This document shows positions 57,043-64,000 of a stretch of 64,000 nt of DNA, in pieces (position 1 is the first letter of the stretch; each line of letters begins with the position of its first letter). The notes beneath the pieces are model-generated. The model made no database searches, had not been told where the DNA came from, and saw only the letters and a list, made by a program, of their open reading frames with translations. This stretch comes from Nostoc sp. S13 (GTDB taxonomy: Bacteria; Cyanobacteriota; Cyanobacteriia; Cyanobacteriales; Nostocaceae): contig NZ_JAQYWQ010000014.1 in assembly GCF_029379315.1 (NCBI RefSeq), positions 542-64,541 of the forward strand. The letters run 5' to 3'. The translations under genes and the position numbers were made by a program.

Positions 57043-57375
57043 TTACCGGCGGGAATCCTGATCTGCGGGGTCGCCGTAGGGGTCTTCGCTGGCTGGACGC
57101 ACGTCACCAAACTCCCCTTTGTCTGCGGGGTCGCCGTAAGGGTCTTCACTAGCTGGGCGAACATTGCCGTAAGACGCGATATCTCCGGGGTCGCCATAGG
57201 GGTCTTGACTGGCTGGGGTAACGTTCCCGTAAGATGCCGGGTCTGCGGGATCACCGTAGGGGTCTTCGCTGGCTGGACGTACATTGCGATCGCGCAATTC
57301 GGCATCTTTGTCAGCTTGATCGCTGTCCGATCCCAAAAGGAAATCTTTCGCCTTTCGCAAAAAGTCATCTACCAT
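57043..57375 (-). CDS. Small acidic repeat protein with four VxPASxDPYGDP repeats
   Basis: Repeats visible in both protein and DNA (gggtcgccgtaggggtc). Confidence 0.75.
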   Translation of the reverse strand: MVDDFLRKAKDFLLGSDSDQADKDAELRDRNVRPASEDPYGDPADPASYGNVTPASQDPYGDPGDIASYGNVRPASEDPYGDPADKGEFGDVRPASEDPYGDPADQDSRR

Positions 57376-58307: not shown

Positions 58308-58961
58308 ATGACATCACAAAATACAGCCCAAACTAGAACTCGTCTCCTTTTGGCTTTGTGGGATTTGGGAGGAACGCAGCAGGAAGTTAAGAAAGGTCAA
58401 TTCACTAAGCGAATTGTATCCAAAAGCCAGAAGGTAGCAGATTATCAGGGCATATTCGAGGAATTACAGAGTCAGGGTGCGATCGCAATTTCCACAAAGG
58501 GATATTCTCTGACATCTGGCAAGGGTTTAGAGGTATTGAGTGAGGGTTTGAGAACTGGCGATTTTAAGTTTGAAGGGACGATTGTCGGTACTTGGGCGGC
58601 GAATGCTTTGGTGAGATGGATTAGTCAAATTGATGTGGCTTTAACTGGTTCAGACGTACTAGTTAATGGGAAAAGTGCGATCGTATCTTACGACAAGTTT
58701 AAGTCAGTGGCCTTGGAAGTTTACGACAAGTTGAACCAAAACTACAACTTAGATAATCTGGTGCCAATTTATCGCATCAGGAGAGAAATAGGGGAGAGAG
58801 TTAACCGTACAAAGTTTAATGAATGGCTAATAGAAATGCAAGCTGATGACATTTTGCAGCTGATGACTGGACAAGTACCAGACTTTACCCCTGATAAACG
58901 TGAAGATTCAATATCTATACCTGGTGCAGAACTACGTTCTTACGCGAAACGCTTGATTTAA
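58308..58961 (+). CDS. Hypothetical protein, probably two winged-helix-like domains; first gene of a putative defence operon
   Basis: LLLALWDLGG...; C-terminal NLVPIYRIRREIGERVNRTKFNEWLIEMQ. Confidence 0.75.
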   Translation: MTSQNTAQTRTRLLLALWDLGGTQQEVKKGQFTKRIVSKSQKVADYQGIFEELQSQGAIAISTKGYSLTSGKGLEVLSEGLRTGDFKFEGTIVGTWAANALVRWISQIDVALTGSDVLVNGKSAIVSYDKFKSVALEVYDKLNQNYNLDNLVPIYRIRREIGERVNRTKFNEWLIEMQADDILQLMTGQVPDFTPDKREDSISIPGAELRSYAKRLI

Positions 58962-59009
58962 TCAAATTGCCCGCACACTTTGTAGTTTCTCGCACCATAT
59001 CAAATCACT

Positions 59010-61125
59010 ATGACAAATACCTTTGTTTCTTCCATAGAAGCTGTCAATGCCGCCATTCAAAATCATAATCCGTTTACCAATGATGGCATTGTTAAAGAAC
59101 AGGATGTCTGGGGAAAAGGATTCCCTGATGTAGCAACTCTAAATGCCCATGCTTCTAATAAAGTTTTTGAGGCAATTGAATTTGTGCGAACAAGCCAATC
59201 TAGTCAAGACAAAGTGACTTCAATTGCCATAACTGCACAAAAGGGGGTTGGGAAAACCCACATTCTTAGTCGCATTCGTCATCAGCTTGAAAAAGAAGGT
59301 GGTGCTTTATTCGTCTATGCAGGCGGTAATAATTATACAGACTTAAATTTAGTTAAGTACCAATTCCAGCAAACCTTGGCAAATAGTCTGAGTAAAACTG
59401 GTAGCCAAAAAGTAATGCAATGGCAGGAAATAGCTACCGCTATGGCAAACGAAGGTAGAAGTGATAATTCTCCCACTCCAGAAGAGTTAGTCAAAAAATT
59501 TGACCAAGTTTATGCAAATAGTTTGGCTCAAAATAAAAACTTAATGAATGCTCTGCAAAAACAAGTTATCAAAAATAAACCCAATGCAGATCCCTATATT
59601 CTACGGGCTATTTTGTGGACGCTTTCAGAAACTCAAGCAACTTTTGCAATTCAATAGACTTATCCGGAAATGAGAACTTTATTTGGCTGAAACCTAGCTC
59701 TGGAGAGGGTTTTAGAGGTTCCTGTTTTATATAAGCTAAAAAGCCAGCTATGTAAGGGTTTCAGCTATTTTGAGGTTTATTTGTGGATAAGTCTAATGGT
59801 TATCTGGTAAAGAGTTAGCGAAATCTAATGCTGATGAGTTGGGATTGCCTAATCCTAATAAAACTAATCAAGATAGAGAAGCTGAAGCTCTCAGAAATAT
59901 TCAGCAAATTTTGAATTTAGTTAGTTTCTATAACCCTGTCGTCATTTGTTTTGACGAAATAGATGTTATTAACAACTCTACTGATGATGGCTTCCCAACA
60001 GCAAGCATAATCGCTAATTTTGTCAAAATTCTCCATGATACTCTCGAAAACTCTGAACTTAGTCAAGGTGTTGTTATTCTCACAGTAATGTTGTCCGAAA
60101 CATGGAGAGATAACGTAAACTCCATGCCAGGTGGTACACCTGACAGAATTTCAAAATATACACAAAGAAAACCACTGGAATTAAAAAACGTTAGTGGCGA
60201 TTCTATAGTTGAATTAGTTACTGCTTGGCTGCAAGAGTATTACAGTTCAAAAAATTTAATTCCTCCTCATCTAGTCTACCCATTTGAAGAAAGTAAGCTG
60301 AAGGAATATGGCAAAGTAAGTAAACCAAGTGTAAGGGAAGCTTTGCGATGGTGTGCAGACAACTTTAAGATTTATGAAGAACCACTTCCATCTGATCCAT
60401 TTGAGAGGTTTGAATTGGCATTCAAAAAGGAATCCGAGGCAGATATTGGAGATTATATAGAGGATAGTTCCTTAATTGCTGAAGCTCTCTACTTTGGCTT
60501 TGATACTTTGAAAGGTCAGACTTTAGAAGGAGTTTTGATTGAAGAAATTGTAAGCGATATCCAAAATAAATCACAGAATAAGCCTAGATCACAGGATAAA
60601 ATTTTTATAAACTTCAAAATTATTGGTAGTGAAAATGCGAAACCAGTAAAAATAGGGGTTTCTGTAATACAGTACTCTCAATTTACATTAACAGCTGCTT
60701 TAAAACGCTTAATCGACTATGAAACATTTGAACTTACTCGTGGTTGTTTGCTTCGTTCGCAATCCAAGATAGAACAAATGAAGAAAAACTCAGAAGCATA
60801 TAAATTGCTTAACGAACTTATATCAGAAAAAGGTGGTGAACATATCGATTTAATAGAAGAGCAAATTTGTCCAATTGTAGCACTTTTAGCTGTTTATAAA
60901 AAGCAGCTACATTATCAATTAACAGAAGATTATATTTTTGATGTAATTATTAAGAATAAAATTACGCTTGATAATGTTTTGCTTAGAGAAATTTTAAGTA
61001 ATCCATCTGGTAATATACCTACCGTTGATGATGAAGAAGATATCCAACTAATAGAGATTTTACTCAATTCTTCAAATATCAATGAAACAGATGACTTAGA
61101 TGAATTGAACGAGTTATTTAGTTAA
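59010..61125 (+). pseudogene. P-loop ATPase (657 aa when restored) interrupted by a 139-bp MITE
   Basis: Walker A AQKGVGKT in fragment 1 and Walker B VICFDEID in fragment 2. Deleting 59656-59797 gives in-frame ...FAIQ-WLSGKELAK... Confidence 0.9.
59656..59794 (+). mobile_element. 139-bp MITE copy A, TIR AGACTTATCC/GGATAAGTCT, AAT target duplication
   Basis: AAT at 59653-59655 and 59795-59797. Confidence 0.93.
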
Positions 61126-61127
61126 AC

Positions 61128-62805
61128 ATGAGTGAATCAATTTTAATTTATAACGCTCTGTGTCTACCAGCTCCCGATATTGAAGCTTTAATACAAGGGC
61201 GAATGATTGCGGCTATGCCTCGTAAATTGCTTAATAATGGGCAAAAATTTGCTTTTTACCCCCTTGATTATTTAACAAATCAGCTTTCAATTGAGCAATA
61301 CTACCACCCAAATTTTTTAGCTACTGCTCAAAGTGCCTTGACACAGTTAAATAGTCAAGATATTTTGTTACAACCTAAGCAAATAAGTTTACTTCAAAAT
61401 GAAGAACAGTTACAACTACCCCTCTTATCTCATAAGACAGTTTCAATTAAAGCTTGGGCTAGATGTGAACATTGCCAAATACTAGATAAGACTAAACCTT
61501 TAGATATTTTGTCTAAGTTAACAATATGGACACCAGAAGCATTTGAGGCAATATTACAGAAACAACCGCATATTTTTTTGGCTTACTTGCGTGTTTATAA
61601 TGTGCCTGAGTTCTGTGAAGTTGCAGCTCATCCAAACATTGAAGAAAAACTAGGTAAATTTGTGGGTTTAGCTAATATTGGTGTTTCTGAAGCTAATCCA
61701 GTATTAAACGATCGCACCTTCGCCCAACGCAAACGCCAATTAGAAAAGCTAGAACCCTCGCTGCATCCTGAATTGGAAAAATTGCAGAGTGCGATCGCAT
61801 CCCTAAGAATTAGCCAACCAGCAGCGAAACAATTAGACGACGATATTAAAGCATTTTTGGGTTGGAGTAGCAATCAACCAACAAATCCATTAGATTTAGA
61901 CTTACCTTGGATTCAGAAAATTGCTGAAGTTGGGAACTCTAGCGACGGACATACATTTGAAAAATTAGTTCGTAGAGGATTACTAAAATTAGGCTTTACA
62001 GGTTCAGGTTTGAATCCAGATGCAACTGGTGGCGCAGGAGGCATGGATTTTTACGCTGAACAACCTTATCCAATAGTAGGAGAGTGCAAAGCAACTAAAA
62101 CTGAAAAAGTTACTGATGGCACACCTGCACAGTTACTAAAAATAGGTATGAACCATCTTCGTAAAGTTCAGTATGAAAATTCAATTAAATTAATTGTAGC
62201 GGCTGGAGAACTAAATTTTTACGCCCTGAGAACAGCAACCGAAAATCAAATAGACTTATCCACAAATAAACCTTAAAATAGCTGAAACCCTTACATAGCT
62301 GGCTTTTTAGCTTATATAAAACAGGAACCTCTAAAACCCTCTCCAGAGCTAGGTTTCAGCCAAATAAAGTTCTCATTTCCGGATAAGTCTAATGAATGTT
62401 ATTAGCCCTGAAACACTACAAAAACTAGTTGAACTGCAAGCACACTACAAAAACTCTATCAATTTGATAGAACTAAAAGAGTATTTGCAACAAGCTCCTT
62501 TTGGTTTAGCTGAAGATAAAATTAATACTTATATCGATAAAGTTGAGCAATCTATAAAGTTGCGATCGCAGATTATCCAGCTTGTGAAAAATTATCTACA
62601 AAACTCAGGCGCAGAATCTGCTGGTGTTGATGCTCTACATGGTGCTTATTTCGGCTCACATCCACCACAGCCATTAAAAACAGTAGAAATGCACGAAATT
62701 CTGATTGAACTTTCTTCACCCTTAACAGGCTATTTAGGACGAATTAAAAGTAGTAATTGGAATAGAGATCGCTTTTACTTTCTCCGCGATTTACCCATTA
62801 ACTAA
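61128..62805 (+). pseudogene. DUF1802-like domain plus Mrr-type PD-(D/E)XK nuclease (511 aa when restored), interrupted by the MITE
   Basis: ALIQGRMIAAMP and IKAWARCE (DUF1802-like); FEKLVRRGLLKLGF...GGMDF...GECK (nuclease). Deleting 62252-62393 gives ...TENQ-MNVISPE... Confidence 0.88.
62252..62390 (-). mobile_element. 139-bp MITE copy B, inverted relative to copy A
   Basis: Reverse complement of copy A with one mismatch; AAT at 62249-62251 and 62391-62393. Confidence 0.93.
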
Positions 62806-62888
62806 AGATAATACAATATATTTGTTTTTTTACGGATATTTTCAAAATAACTGAAGTGCTTAGGCGTAGCCAGCTGTAGGCATCGCAG

Positions 62889-63251
62889 TTATCCCAAAGT
62901 TAATATATCAGCATGATAATTAACTACCAACGGCAGGATTTTTAGCCATTCTGAACCTAACAAAACTTCTGTAATTTCATCCCCTGCATAAACAGAAATC
63001 TCATACTCCTGTCCATCCAATAGAATCTTACCTAAATACCTATCAAATATGATTTCTCCTTGTGCAGTTCGCAGAAGTTCATCCCCACTATAGGCCCAGT
63101 CAAGACTATCTAAATCTTGTTTATTAATTGCTATAAAGCCTGTGAACCCAGTATCTAACATAGCATCTACAGGCAGATTTAATCCATCAAATGTAATCAA
63201 ATCAATTTCAAAAAATAGTTCTCCTTTACTACCAAAAGTACCCTGAATCAT
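62889..63251 (-). CDS. Single-domain clan AA (retropepsin-like) aspartyl protease family protein
   Basis: AMLDTGFTG catalytic-type motif and C-terminal VLLGSEWL. Confidence 0.8.
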   Translation of the reverse strand: MIQGTFGSKGELFFEIDLITFDGLNLPVDAMLDTGFTGFIAINKQDLDSLDWAYSGDELLRTAQGEIIFDRYLGKILLDGQEYEISVYAGDEITEVLLGSEWLKILPLVVNYHADILTLG

Positions 63252-63565
63252 ATTGTGCCAGTGGCTCCACTTTCATTCAGGCAAAAAACGCAGTGTTTAA
63301 CATTTGGGTACTTCTGAAGCGCTTTTCTATGAGCCACTTCTATATCTTCATCAATAAAAAAATTTCCGCTATCTGGTTCAATGGCAATATACCAGCCATA
63401 GTTTTTTTCGATATATTCTGGACGCACACACTCAAAAATTGCACGACAACGCCGATAAAATATCTCCCGTTCAGCTTTGCGTCTAGCAAGTTCTTCTGGT
63501 GGTAAAGTGCGTTCTGGAAAGATTCTGCCTCGACGTGCAGGTTGTTTTGCAGTTGATTCAGTCAT
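63248..63565 (-). CDS. Small hypothetical protein (DUF5678-like), coupled to the aspartyl protease gene
   Basis: YGWYIAIEPDSGNFFIDED motif; ATGA overlap with the downstream gene; start placed at MTEST. Confidence 0.65.
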   Translation of the reverse strand: MTESTAKQPARRGRIFPERTLPPEELARRKAEREIFYRRCRAIFECVRPEYIEKNYGWYIAIEPDSGNFFIDEDIEVAHRKALQKYPNVKHCVFCLNESGATGTI

Positions 63566-63769
63566 AGTAATTAACCCCATTTGTTAACGCTGTCTTAACT
63601 TTATTTTACAGAAAGATAAAAGCGATCGCTTTTACTTTCTCCGCGATTTACCTATTAACTAAAGATAATACAATATATCTCTTTTCTTACCTTCGCGCTC
63701 TTTGCGTCTTTTGCGGTTCGTTTCAAAATAACTGAAGTGCGTAGGCGTAGCCAGCCGTAGCCATTGCAG

Positions 63770-64000
63770 TTATCCTAAAGTCAAAATATTAGCCTGATAA
63801 TTAACTACCAACGGCAGAATTTTTAGCCATTCTGAACCTAACAAAACTTCTATAATTTCGTTGCCTGCAAAAACTGGAATTTCATACTCCTGTCCATTCA
63901 ATTTTACCTTCCCTAAAAACAAATCAAAAACTTTTTCACCCTGTGCTGTTCGTAGTTCTTGACCACGAATAAATTGCCAGTCCAGACCATCTAAATCTTG
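63770..64000 (-). CDS. Second aspartyl-protease-like paralog, 5' part beyond window
   Basis: Translates QDLDGLDWQFIRGQELRTAQGEKVFDLFLGKVKLNGQEYEIPVFAGNEIIEVLLGSEWLKILPLVVNYQANILTLG*. Confidence 0.85.
   Translation of the reverse strand, partial: QDLDGLDWQFIRGQELRTAQGEKVFDLFLGKVKLNGQEYEIPVFAGNEIIEVLLGSEWLKILPLVVNYQANILTLG

Follow-up and report, generated by a model that had tools for sequence, protein, structure and literature searches.

An ATPase–nuclease module of filamentous cyanobacteria with a probable immune role, interrupted by two transposable elements in Nostoc sp. S13

Three tightly linked genes, here termed A, B and C, lie on the forward strand near the end of a 64,000-nt stretch of the Nostoc sp. 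S13 genome (contig NZ_JAQYWQ010000014.1 of assembly GCF_029379315.1, positions 542–64541; hereafter the window). They are predicted to encode a small DNA-binding protein, a P-loop ATPase and a DUF1802 domain joined to an Mrr-type nuclease. A first-pass annotation had described them as a candidate undescribed restriction or anti-phage operon whose architecture is concealed by fragmentary open reading frames (ORFs), and B and C were indeed each found to be split by one insertion of a miniature inverted-repeat transposable element (MITE). Comparison with other genomes showed that A-B-C is one operon, a conserved chromosomal three-protein module of filamentous cyanobacteria. The module is highly polymorphic and carried by most of these organisms, and the comparative sequence data point to a probable immune role.

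Gene layout and MITE insertions in the window

The coordinates of the genes, motifs and insertions are given in Table 1; homologous loci in other genomes carry labels beginning with L. As listed by ORF prediction, B consisted of two fragments (59010–59657 and 59839–61125), as did C (61128–62276 and 62392–62805). Excision of 142 nt, i.e., the MITE body and one target duplication, restored a B of 657 aa and a C of 511 aa, with the junctions ...TFAIQ/WLSGKEL... in B and ...TENQ/MNVISPETLQ... in C. The C junction sits inside an invariant block of the C family, and the restored C showed 91% identity, over 100% of its length, to intact 511-aa homologues. In a close relative (L086), uninterrupted genes of exactly 217, 657 and 511 aa were found with both insertion sites empty, and the excised window operon aligned to this locus as a single 4.3-kb match with 87% identity. 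The lengths given in the first-pass annotation for the trio once freed of MITEs were therefore recovered from both the excised and the naturally intact genes. The linkage that it reported (gaps of 48 nt between A and B and 2 nt between B and C) was also found in the gene layout, and its ATPase and nuclease motifs (AQKGVGKT, FDEID and MDF...ECK) were located in the window.

Table 1. Features of the A-B-C locus (window positions, unless a locus label precedes them)
Feature	Position	Strand	Remarks
Gene A	58308–58961	+	217 aa, intact ORF
Gene B, 5' part (codons 1–215, to MITE body)	59010–59655	+	Carries Walker A
B motif AQKGVGKT (Walker A)	59235–59258	+	
MITE copy 1	59656–59794	+	139 nt, terminal inverted repeats AGACTTATCC and GGATAAGTCT; AAT duplication at 59653–59655 and 59795–59797
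Gene B, 3' part (codons 216–657)	59797–61125	+	Walker B, helical region, alpha/beta C-terminal domain with TRGCL(V/L)RS motif, acidic tail
B motif CFDEID (Walker B)	59947–59964	+	
Gene C, 5' part (codons 1–374)	61128–62251	+	Predicted DUF1802/ASCH-like barrel, helical linker, Mrr-type PD-(D/E)XK core
C catalytic residues	61950–62099	+	
C motif GGMDFY	62037–62054	+	
C motif VGECKATK	62076–62099	+	
MITE copy 2	62252–62390	−	139 nt, inverted relative to copy 1; AAT duplication at 62249–62251 and 62391–62393
Gene C, 3' part (codons 375–511)	62393–62805	+	Predicted helical region and C-terminal winged-helix-like domain
Convergent pair D/E	62889–63580	−	D, 120 aa, retropepsin-like aspartyl protease with DTG motif; E, 110 aa
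Copy of gene C 3' end	63618–63690	+	73 nt, 92% identical to 62761–62833; between two D/E units
Second D/E unit	from 63709 (63770–64000+)	−	Tandem duplicate, units 85% identical
Third copy of gene C 3' end	64653–64702		Beyond window end
Repeat-containing ORF	57043–57375	−	110 aa, RPASEDPYGDPAD-type repeats
Toxin–antitoxin-like or defence-like neighbours of the trio	L086 5664–6229; L002 7348–7992; L083 11527–12243; L084 9516–10322		

The breaks in B and C are inverted copies of one element (160 nt with 95% complementarity). A search of the genome assembly (7.23 Mb, 238 contigs) recovered 114 near-full-length copies with 98.6%–100% identity, whose aligned flanks defined a 139-nt body (AGACTTATCC...GGATAAGTCT) and a 3-nt target duplication with the consensus A-W-T. 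The element has the properties of a MITE, being short and non-coding, with 10-nt perfect terminal repeats, a target duplication and many near-identical copies. The two copies in the operon differ by one base, and copy 1 is 100% identical to many of the genomic copies. The genome has undergone a recent MITE burst; the assembly yielded no autonomous insertion sequence sharing the MITE terminal repeats. Two other descriptions of the insertions were considered and rejected. Excision of 139 nt, based on the TA duplication of IS630-like elements, would put a TAA stop into the frame of B and is at odds with the 3-nt AWT duplication seen in the 114 copies. A composite transposon formed by the two inverted MITEs around the B/C junction was rejected because each copy has its own duplication and other close pairs exist. 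Since three other pairs in the genome have members less than 3 kb apart, two insertions within 2.6 kb are not exceptional. After excision, an open frame of 150 aa or more ran across 31 of the 114 copies, which thus appear to interrupt genes. Judged by eye only, the interrupted frames resembled STAND/NB-ARC-type NTPases with TPR repeats, a TonB-dependent receptor, an RTX-like protein and an ABC exporter.

Copy 1 separates the Walker A motif of B from Walker B, and copy 2 cuts C after codon 374, so that C loses its C-terminal domain and the final strand of its nuclease core. Therefore, the operon is expected to be non-functional in this genome, and the sequence marks it as a recent, dead pseudogene. 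The ratio of nonsynonymous to synonymous substitution rates (dN/dS) was 0.2–0.28 for A, B and C, including comparisons with the excised copies of the window, which suggests that all three genes are under purifying selection and that inactivation here was too recent for other damage to accumulate. For practical purposes, the operon of this strain can be treated as a recent pseudogene left by a MITE burst that also hit about 30 other long frames.

Predicted domains of the three proteins

For protein C, the Pfam model DUF1802 (PF08819) matched the window fragment with an E-value of 1.5e-33 (116.5 bits) and the intact homologue of L001 with 125.4 bits, against a gathering threshold of 25. The Mrr_cat model (PF04471) aligned to the L001 protein over model positions 4–114 of 115 with 18.5 bits (E-value 0.0022) and to the window fragment with 14.3 bits, its gathering threshold being 21 bits. 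Residues E278, D307, E319 and K321, arranged as FEKLV ... GG.D ... ECK, were invariant in 63 C homologues down to 39% identity and also occur in the window sequence. Based on the alignment of these 63 homologues, an AlphaFold2 model had a mean predicted local distance difference test (pLDDT) score of 85.6. When the model was compared with the PDB using Foldseek, the top match was the type IV enzyme MspJI. The ASCH domains of ZmASCH, TRIP4, EOLA1 and YqfB were matched with probabilities of 0.98–1.0 (ZmASCH: 0.99–1.0, with a template modelling (TM)-target score of 0.54–0.57; YqfB: TM-target 0.66), the nuclease part resembled the Mrr-like folds of AF1548 and the RPB5 N-domain, and the C-terminus resembled winged-helix regions of ORC/Cdc6.

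According to the model, DUF1802 folds as an ASCH/PUA-like barrel. We read C as an ASCH-like barrel (ca. aa 1–190, with a variable insert at aa 50–100) followed by a helical linker, a predicted Mrr-type nuclease (ca. aa 260–378) and a helical region with a winged helix (aa 380–511). The DUF1802 and Mrr-type PD-(D/E)XK domains named in the first-pass annotation thus held up, through the strong DUF1802 match, the invariant catalytic residues and the Mrr-like fold matches, the Mrr_cat match itself being weak. The annotation had also called the association between DUF1802 and Mrr-type nucleases a known one. A literature search for DUF1802 returned nothing relevant, so that this wording found no published support, although both domains were present in every C homologue of this analysis. 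Stand-alone DUF1802/ASCH-like proteins of ca. 190–240 aa, with the nuclease part absent, were also observed at unrelated loci in many cyanobacterial genomes of the phylum sample.

Protein B gave weak matches to the Pfam models AAA_16, KAP_NTPase, AAA_22, NPHP3_N, nSTAND_NTPase5, DnaA/Hda and Orc1/Cdc6. The NPHP3_N match exceeded its cut-off in the L002 homologue only (26.3 vs. 24.8 bits), and NPHP3_N and nSTAND_NTPase5 otherwise scored mostly below their cut-offs; AAA_5 reached an E-value of 0.21. The nearest named sequence families were the Sll1717-type ATPases (NF047389; E-value 3.4e-9, 29–36 bits against a cut-off of 75) and the DS-41 ATPase (NF053860; E-value 3.6e-6, 26–27 bits against a cut-off of 370). 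A literature search for Sll1717 returned nothing relevant. The AlphaFold2 model of the L001 homologue had a pLDDT of 85.1, and its best structural neighbours in Foldseek were mS29/DAP3, Cdc6, ORC subunits and the N-terminal ATPase of BrxC, with a probability of ca. 1.0. In the C-terminal alpha/beta domain, strands and helices are ordered as in a PD-(D/E)XK core, but there is no conserved acidic triad, and no repeat or TPR sensor domain was visible in the model. On the basis of the predicted fold, B would be a divergent ORC/Cdc6/BrxC-like P-loop ATPase.

The first-pass annotation had described protein A as a winged-helix protein. Two putative winged-helix-like halves and a C-terminal tail of ca. 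45 aa could be recognised, and weak winged-helix Pfam matches recurred in a minority of 56 homologues (SelB-wing_2 in 10, DUF6293_C in 2 with a best E-value of 1.7e-5, and also MCM4_WHD and HTH_45). This recurrence favours the assignment, but no match of A to any family was significant, and an A profile searched against PDB sequences gave no significant match of any kind. A is thus probably a small, DNA-binding winged-helix protein, judging from these sequence matches.

Distribution, allelic diversity and cassette turnover

A pattern scan using one genome per species identified C in 144 species, and 80 loci were then examined for gene order (some of the counts below come from 77 or 85 loci). 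Apart from L012, a record labelled as an Acetobacteraceae bin and probably misbinned, all of the 144 species were cyanobacteria. A and B lay directly upstream of C wherever upstream sequence existed among the 80 loci, and intact trios were obtained from 72. The order A-B-C was found across Nostocales, Oscillatoriales and Xenococcaceae, and the loci without an intact trio were contig ends or degraded copies, such as L057 and L061. The co-occurrence of the three genes, proposed from the window alone, was thus borne out by the neighbourhood comparison. The spacing between B and C was −4 to +18 nt in 59 of 71 trios, suggesting translational coupling of these two genes.

Among sampled Nostocaceae, C was present in 154 of 201 genomes and 56 of 68 genera. 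In an even sample of the phylum, C clustered in a small number of filamentous families (38/46 genomes of Nostocaceae and 25/26 of a second family, with 19/19 genomes of one Oscillatoriales genus), compared with 0/33 in another family and 1/217 across twelve more. In Nostocaceae, the trio occupies a syntenic site with the order psaE – mutM – ndhO – two small genes – A-B-C ... pgi. No copies of the module were found in a scan of IMG/VR viral contigs or a tblastn search of PLSDB plasmids.

This fixed position is accompanied by deep divergence of B. Mean pairwise identity was 48% for B and ca. 60% for A and C, and the B sequences fell into seven classes at the 50% level. Classes 1, 2, 3, 5 and 7 all occur at the same mutM–ndhO site in Nostocaceae, and the same classes are also present in Oscillatoriales. 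In genome pairs with MutM at least 88% identical, the median identity was 82% for A and 78% for C, but 47% for B (minimum 40%). Similarly, the Spearman correlation with MutM identity was 0.75 for A and 0.69 for C, but only 0.11 for B. At a single syntenic site, B therefore comes in deeply divergent allele classes (< 50% identical) that do not follow the species background. Sliding-window comparisons showed that the last ca. 45 residues of A track B (rho 0.69–0.85), in contrast to the rest of A (0.07–0.37). The ASCH domain of C tracked B moderately (0.3–0.53), whereas the nuclease and winged-helix parts of C followed A and not B (0.02–0.29 with B). From these correlations, the varying unit comprises the A tail, all of B and the ASCH domain of C, with conserved recombination arms on either side. 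Divergence extends along the full length of B, ATPase core included, and is not confined to a terminal sensor.

Two divergent trios were found in tandem at L044, L049/L085, L055 and L063 (Calothrix, Rivularia and Richelia), with B 27%–28% and C 34%–36% identical between the paired copies. In the window and just beyond its end, the last 50–73 nt of C are present three times and bracket the D/E units (Table 1); this repeated segment contains a HIP1-type GCGATCGC palindrome. Longer relics of the C 3' end, of up to ca. 150 codons, were observed downstream of C at L002, L026, L064, L075 and L077. These relics look like remains of displaced or deleted trio copies and, together with tandem stacking, are further signs of cassette gain and loss. 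The module is dispensable, being broken by MITEs in the window and degraded at L057 and L061.

Possible function, named systems and neighbouring genes

No named system matching A, B or C was found in NCBIfam or PHROGs, PADLOC 2.0 gave no match for the window fragments or for intact homologues of four B classes, and PDB sequence searches with single sequences and profiles of the three proteins returned nothing significant. A literature search likewise found no described system with this composition. The initial suggestion that the operon is undescribed therefore agrees with the PADLOC comparison and with the other databases searched. Its statement that the operon has no methyltransferase was also in line with the wider data, as a crude motif scan found no candidate at 84 of 85 loci and the single candidate was part of another gene pair, which is placed divergently.

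Fusion of a PUA-superfamily barrel to a PD-(D/E)XK or HNH nuclease is the hallmark of modification-dependent type IV restriction enzymes (PMC6765204, PMC12707154), and ASCH domains are predicted binders of DNA and modified bases (PMC7641849). Moreover, COG1743 – DUF499 – SWI2/SNF2-nuclease – EVE is a predicted defence system in which a PUA-family reader accompanies a Cdc6/ORC-like ATPase and a nuclease (Bell et al. 2020, PMC7641849). The predicted ASCH/PUA-like fold of DUF1802 gives the modification-dependent restriction suggested in the first-pass annotation a structural basis. By analogy with the PUA-reader nucleases and the DUF499 system (PMC6765204, PMC12707154, PMC7641849), A-B-C might be an NTP (nucleoside triphosphate)-dependent, type IV-like restriction or immunity system. 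The ASCH barrel of C would read a feature of foreign DNA, most likely a modified base. B, recruited to or positioned on DNA by A, would act as a nucleotide-dependent switch or clamp that licenses C, much as McrB does for McrC, and the Mrr-type domain would cut DNA once licensed. The swappable block (A tail, B and the ASCH domain of C) could set the specificity, with the nuclease and winged helix of C as the constant effector. We regard this NTPase-assisted restriction or immunity reading as the best of those considered, although evenly balanced between being right and wrong, its mechanistic steps being inferred.

By composition, A-B-C appears to be an NTPase-assisted variant of the PUA-reader type IV-like enzymes that falls outside MspJI, Mrr, McrBC, BREX, Avs and DS-41. 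Like MspJI, VcaM4I and TagI, C combines an N-terminal PUA-superfamily barrel and a PD-(D/E)XK nuclease in one polypeptide, and no cognate methyltransferase accompanies it. Unlike in these enzymes, the reader is predicted to be ASCH-like (DUF1802) instead of SRA or EVE, and an additional winged helix is present at the C-terminus. MspJI-type enzymes are also autonomous and NTP-independent, whereas C is encoded with the ATPase B and the small protein A at ca. 72 of 80 loci. C resembles E. coli Mrr in its catalytic core (GG.D ... ExK), the near full-length Mrr_cat alignment and the Mrr-like fold matches. However, the winged helix of Mrr is N-terminal and Mrr has no ASCH domain, while that of C is C-terminal and C has an ASCH domain as well as the partners A and B.

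PUA-type readers are known to be fused to McrBC-type systems (PMC6765204, PMC12707154), and as in McrBC, a P-loop NTPase gene adjoins, and its product probably licenses, a PD-(D/E)XK nuclease subunit. B nevertheless has no McrB-type AAA+ GTPase domain, as the AAA_5 score indicates, the predicted reader is on the nuclease and not on the NTPase, and a third protein, A, is present; McrB and McrC models gave no match in the Pfam or PADLOC scans. With BrxC/PglY of BREX and the DUF499 predicted system, the resemblance is at the level of the fold, B being matched to the BrxC N-terminal ATPase with a Foldseek probability of 1.0. In contrast to both, no DUF499 Pfam match, methyltransferase, PglZ or helicase was found in or beside the operon, and B is about half as long as BrxC, with a reader of ASCH type fused to Mrr. 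Avs/STAND NTPases differ in that B had no PADLOC Avs match and its model no C-terminal repeat sensor. Among named families, the ATPase domain of B is closest in sequence to DS-41, a one-gene AAA protein system validated by the DefensePredictor study (PMC13092281), and to the Sll1717 ATPases. However, B scores far below both family cut-offs, and DS-41 has neither the ASCH-Mrr nuclease nor A.

Several points weigh against a restriction or immunity function. For a defence system, the module is very common (154 of 201 Nostocaceae and every genome of one Oscillatoriales genus), and a fixed locus flanked by housekeeping genes and absent from the plasmid and viral collections is unusual for a mobile one. 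The function proposed for the family is drawn from sequence and from the predicted structures of B and C, and the Mrr_cat scores are under the Pfam gathering threshold. The whole-model Foldseek E-values of C are weak (4e-3 or worse; 1e-2 to 1 for the ASCH matches), because the query has several domains. In addition, ASCH domains also act on RNA or as hydrolases, as in YqfB, so that reading of modified DNA would be one option among others, and the correlation of the A tail and the ASCH domain with B could be explained by physical linkage instead of co-adaptation. Since the module is so prevalent, is fixed on the chromosome and has no known copies on mobile elements, three other explanations, namely abortive infection, repair and addiction, were retained alongside the restriction or immunity reading.

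The best supported of these is abortive infection by a sensor ATPase of the Avs/STAND type acting in trans, in which B would sense a phage protein or structure, oligomerise and switch on C, leading to indiscriminate DNA degradation, with the ASCH domain serving for regulation or DNA anchoring and not for reading modified bases. STAND defence proteins commonly have Mrr-like nucleases as effectors, and B has weak matches to AAA_16, NPHP3_N, nSTAND_NTPase5 and KAP. B is also the most divergent of the three proteins, with classes uncoupled from phylogeny, as expected of an arms-race sensor. However, this divergence affects the whole protein, including the ATPase core, and not a C-terminal sensor, and neither a repeat or TPR sensor domain nor a PADLOC Avs match was found. 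The nearest folds of B are the DNA-associated ATPases ORC, Cdc6 and BrxC, and the ASCH domain co-varies with B. We consider this explanation unlikely.

A housekeeping role in DNA maintenance or repair of large, polyploid filamentous cyanobacteria, in which the ASCH domain would recognise damaged or N-acylated bases, the nuclease incise and the ATPase together with A organise the process, seems less probable still. Such a role would suit a module that is near-universal in several genera, sits at a fixed chromosomal site beside mutM, has no copies on mobile elements and shows purifying selection on A, B and C. The ASCH protein YqfB, furthermore, acts on N4-acylated cytosines (PMC12707154). Yet repair genes of close relatives do not normally form allele classes below 50% identity at a single locus, nor divergent tandem copies, and a dN/dS of 0.2–0.28 is high for core repair genes. 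The module is also missing from ca. 23% of sampled Nostocaceae, broken in the window and degraded in other genomes. An immune or self/non-self function fits better than housekeeping, judging from the ancient allele classes found at one fixed site, the tandem stacking, the relics of displaced copies and the repeated loss. The third explanation, a selfish addiction or kin-discrimination locus whose nuclease is a toxin restrained by A and/or B and whose allele classes are compatibility groups and not anti-phage specificities, appears very improbable: the polymorphism resembles balancing selection at a fixed locus, toxin–antitoxin-like small gene pairs (D/E, ParE, HicB, Uma2) cluster beside the trio and relics of displaced copies lie downstream, but no intercellular delivery mechanism is encoded, no antitoxin-like fold was identified, and the strain survives with B broken although the 5' fragment of C still encodes the nuclease core, an argument weakened by C being broken too.

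A more specific form of the restriction or immunity reading holds that A-B-C is a new class of NTP-dependent, type IV-like restriction, whose ASCH-Mrr nuclease depends on an ORC/Cdc6-like ATPase for loading or licensing. The locus would then be a chromosomally fixed, balanced-polymorphic immune locus, whose specificity cassette is swapped by recombination and whose allele classes predate the split of Nostocales and Oscillatoriales. This form is put forward tentatively and, in our judgement, falls somewhat short of an even chance. If the module restricts DNA, it would be among the most widespread barriers to phage and gene transfer in Nostoc, Microcoleus and related genera. Transforming these cyanobacteria is notoriously difficult, and the restriction barriers known from them are classical restriction–modification systems. 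The modification-dependent restriction enzymes would then also gain an ORC/Cdc6-like ATPase partner and an ASCH reader, and the locus would be a clear case, in bacteria, of chromosomally fixed immunity genes that persist as ancient allele classes.

Downstream of C, the convergent pair D/E is tandemly duplicated in the window (Table 1). A homologous pair was found within ca. 100 nt of the C stop codon at 36 of 77 loci, all in Nostocales, and in the tandem array of L049/L085 each trio has its own pair. As only three such pairs occur in this genome, their association with the trio is not due to abundance. D/E is thus a frequent neighbour of the trio in Nostocales and, on this positional evidence, a candidate member of the module. 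In other genomes, small toxin–antitoxin-like or defence-like genes often adjoin the trio; they include a ParE pair, a TIR-domain protein and Uma2, which in one case is inserted between B and C. A scan for promoters and terminators was uninformative, with fewer promoter-like sites than in shuffled sequence. Upstream of A, the short repeat-containing ORF on the reverse strand lies in a locally GC-rich segment (54% vs. ca. 40%), where a second long ORF on the same strand covers it completely in a different frame; relatives carry a homologue of 118–130 aa at the same place.

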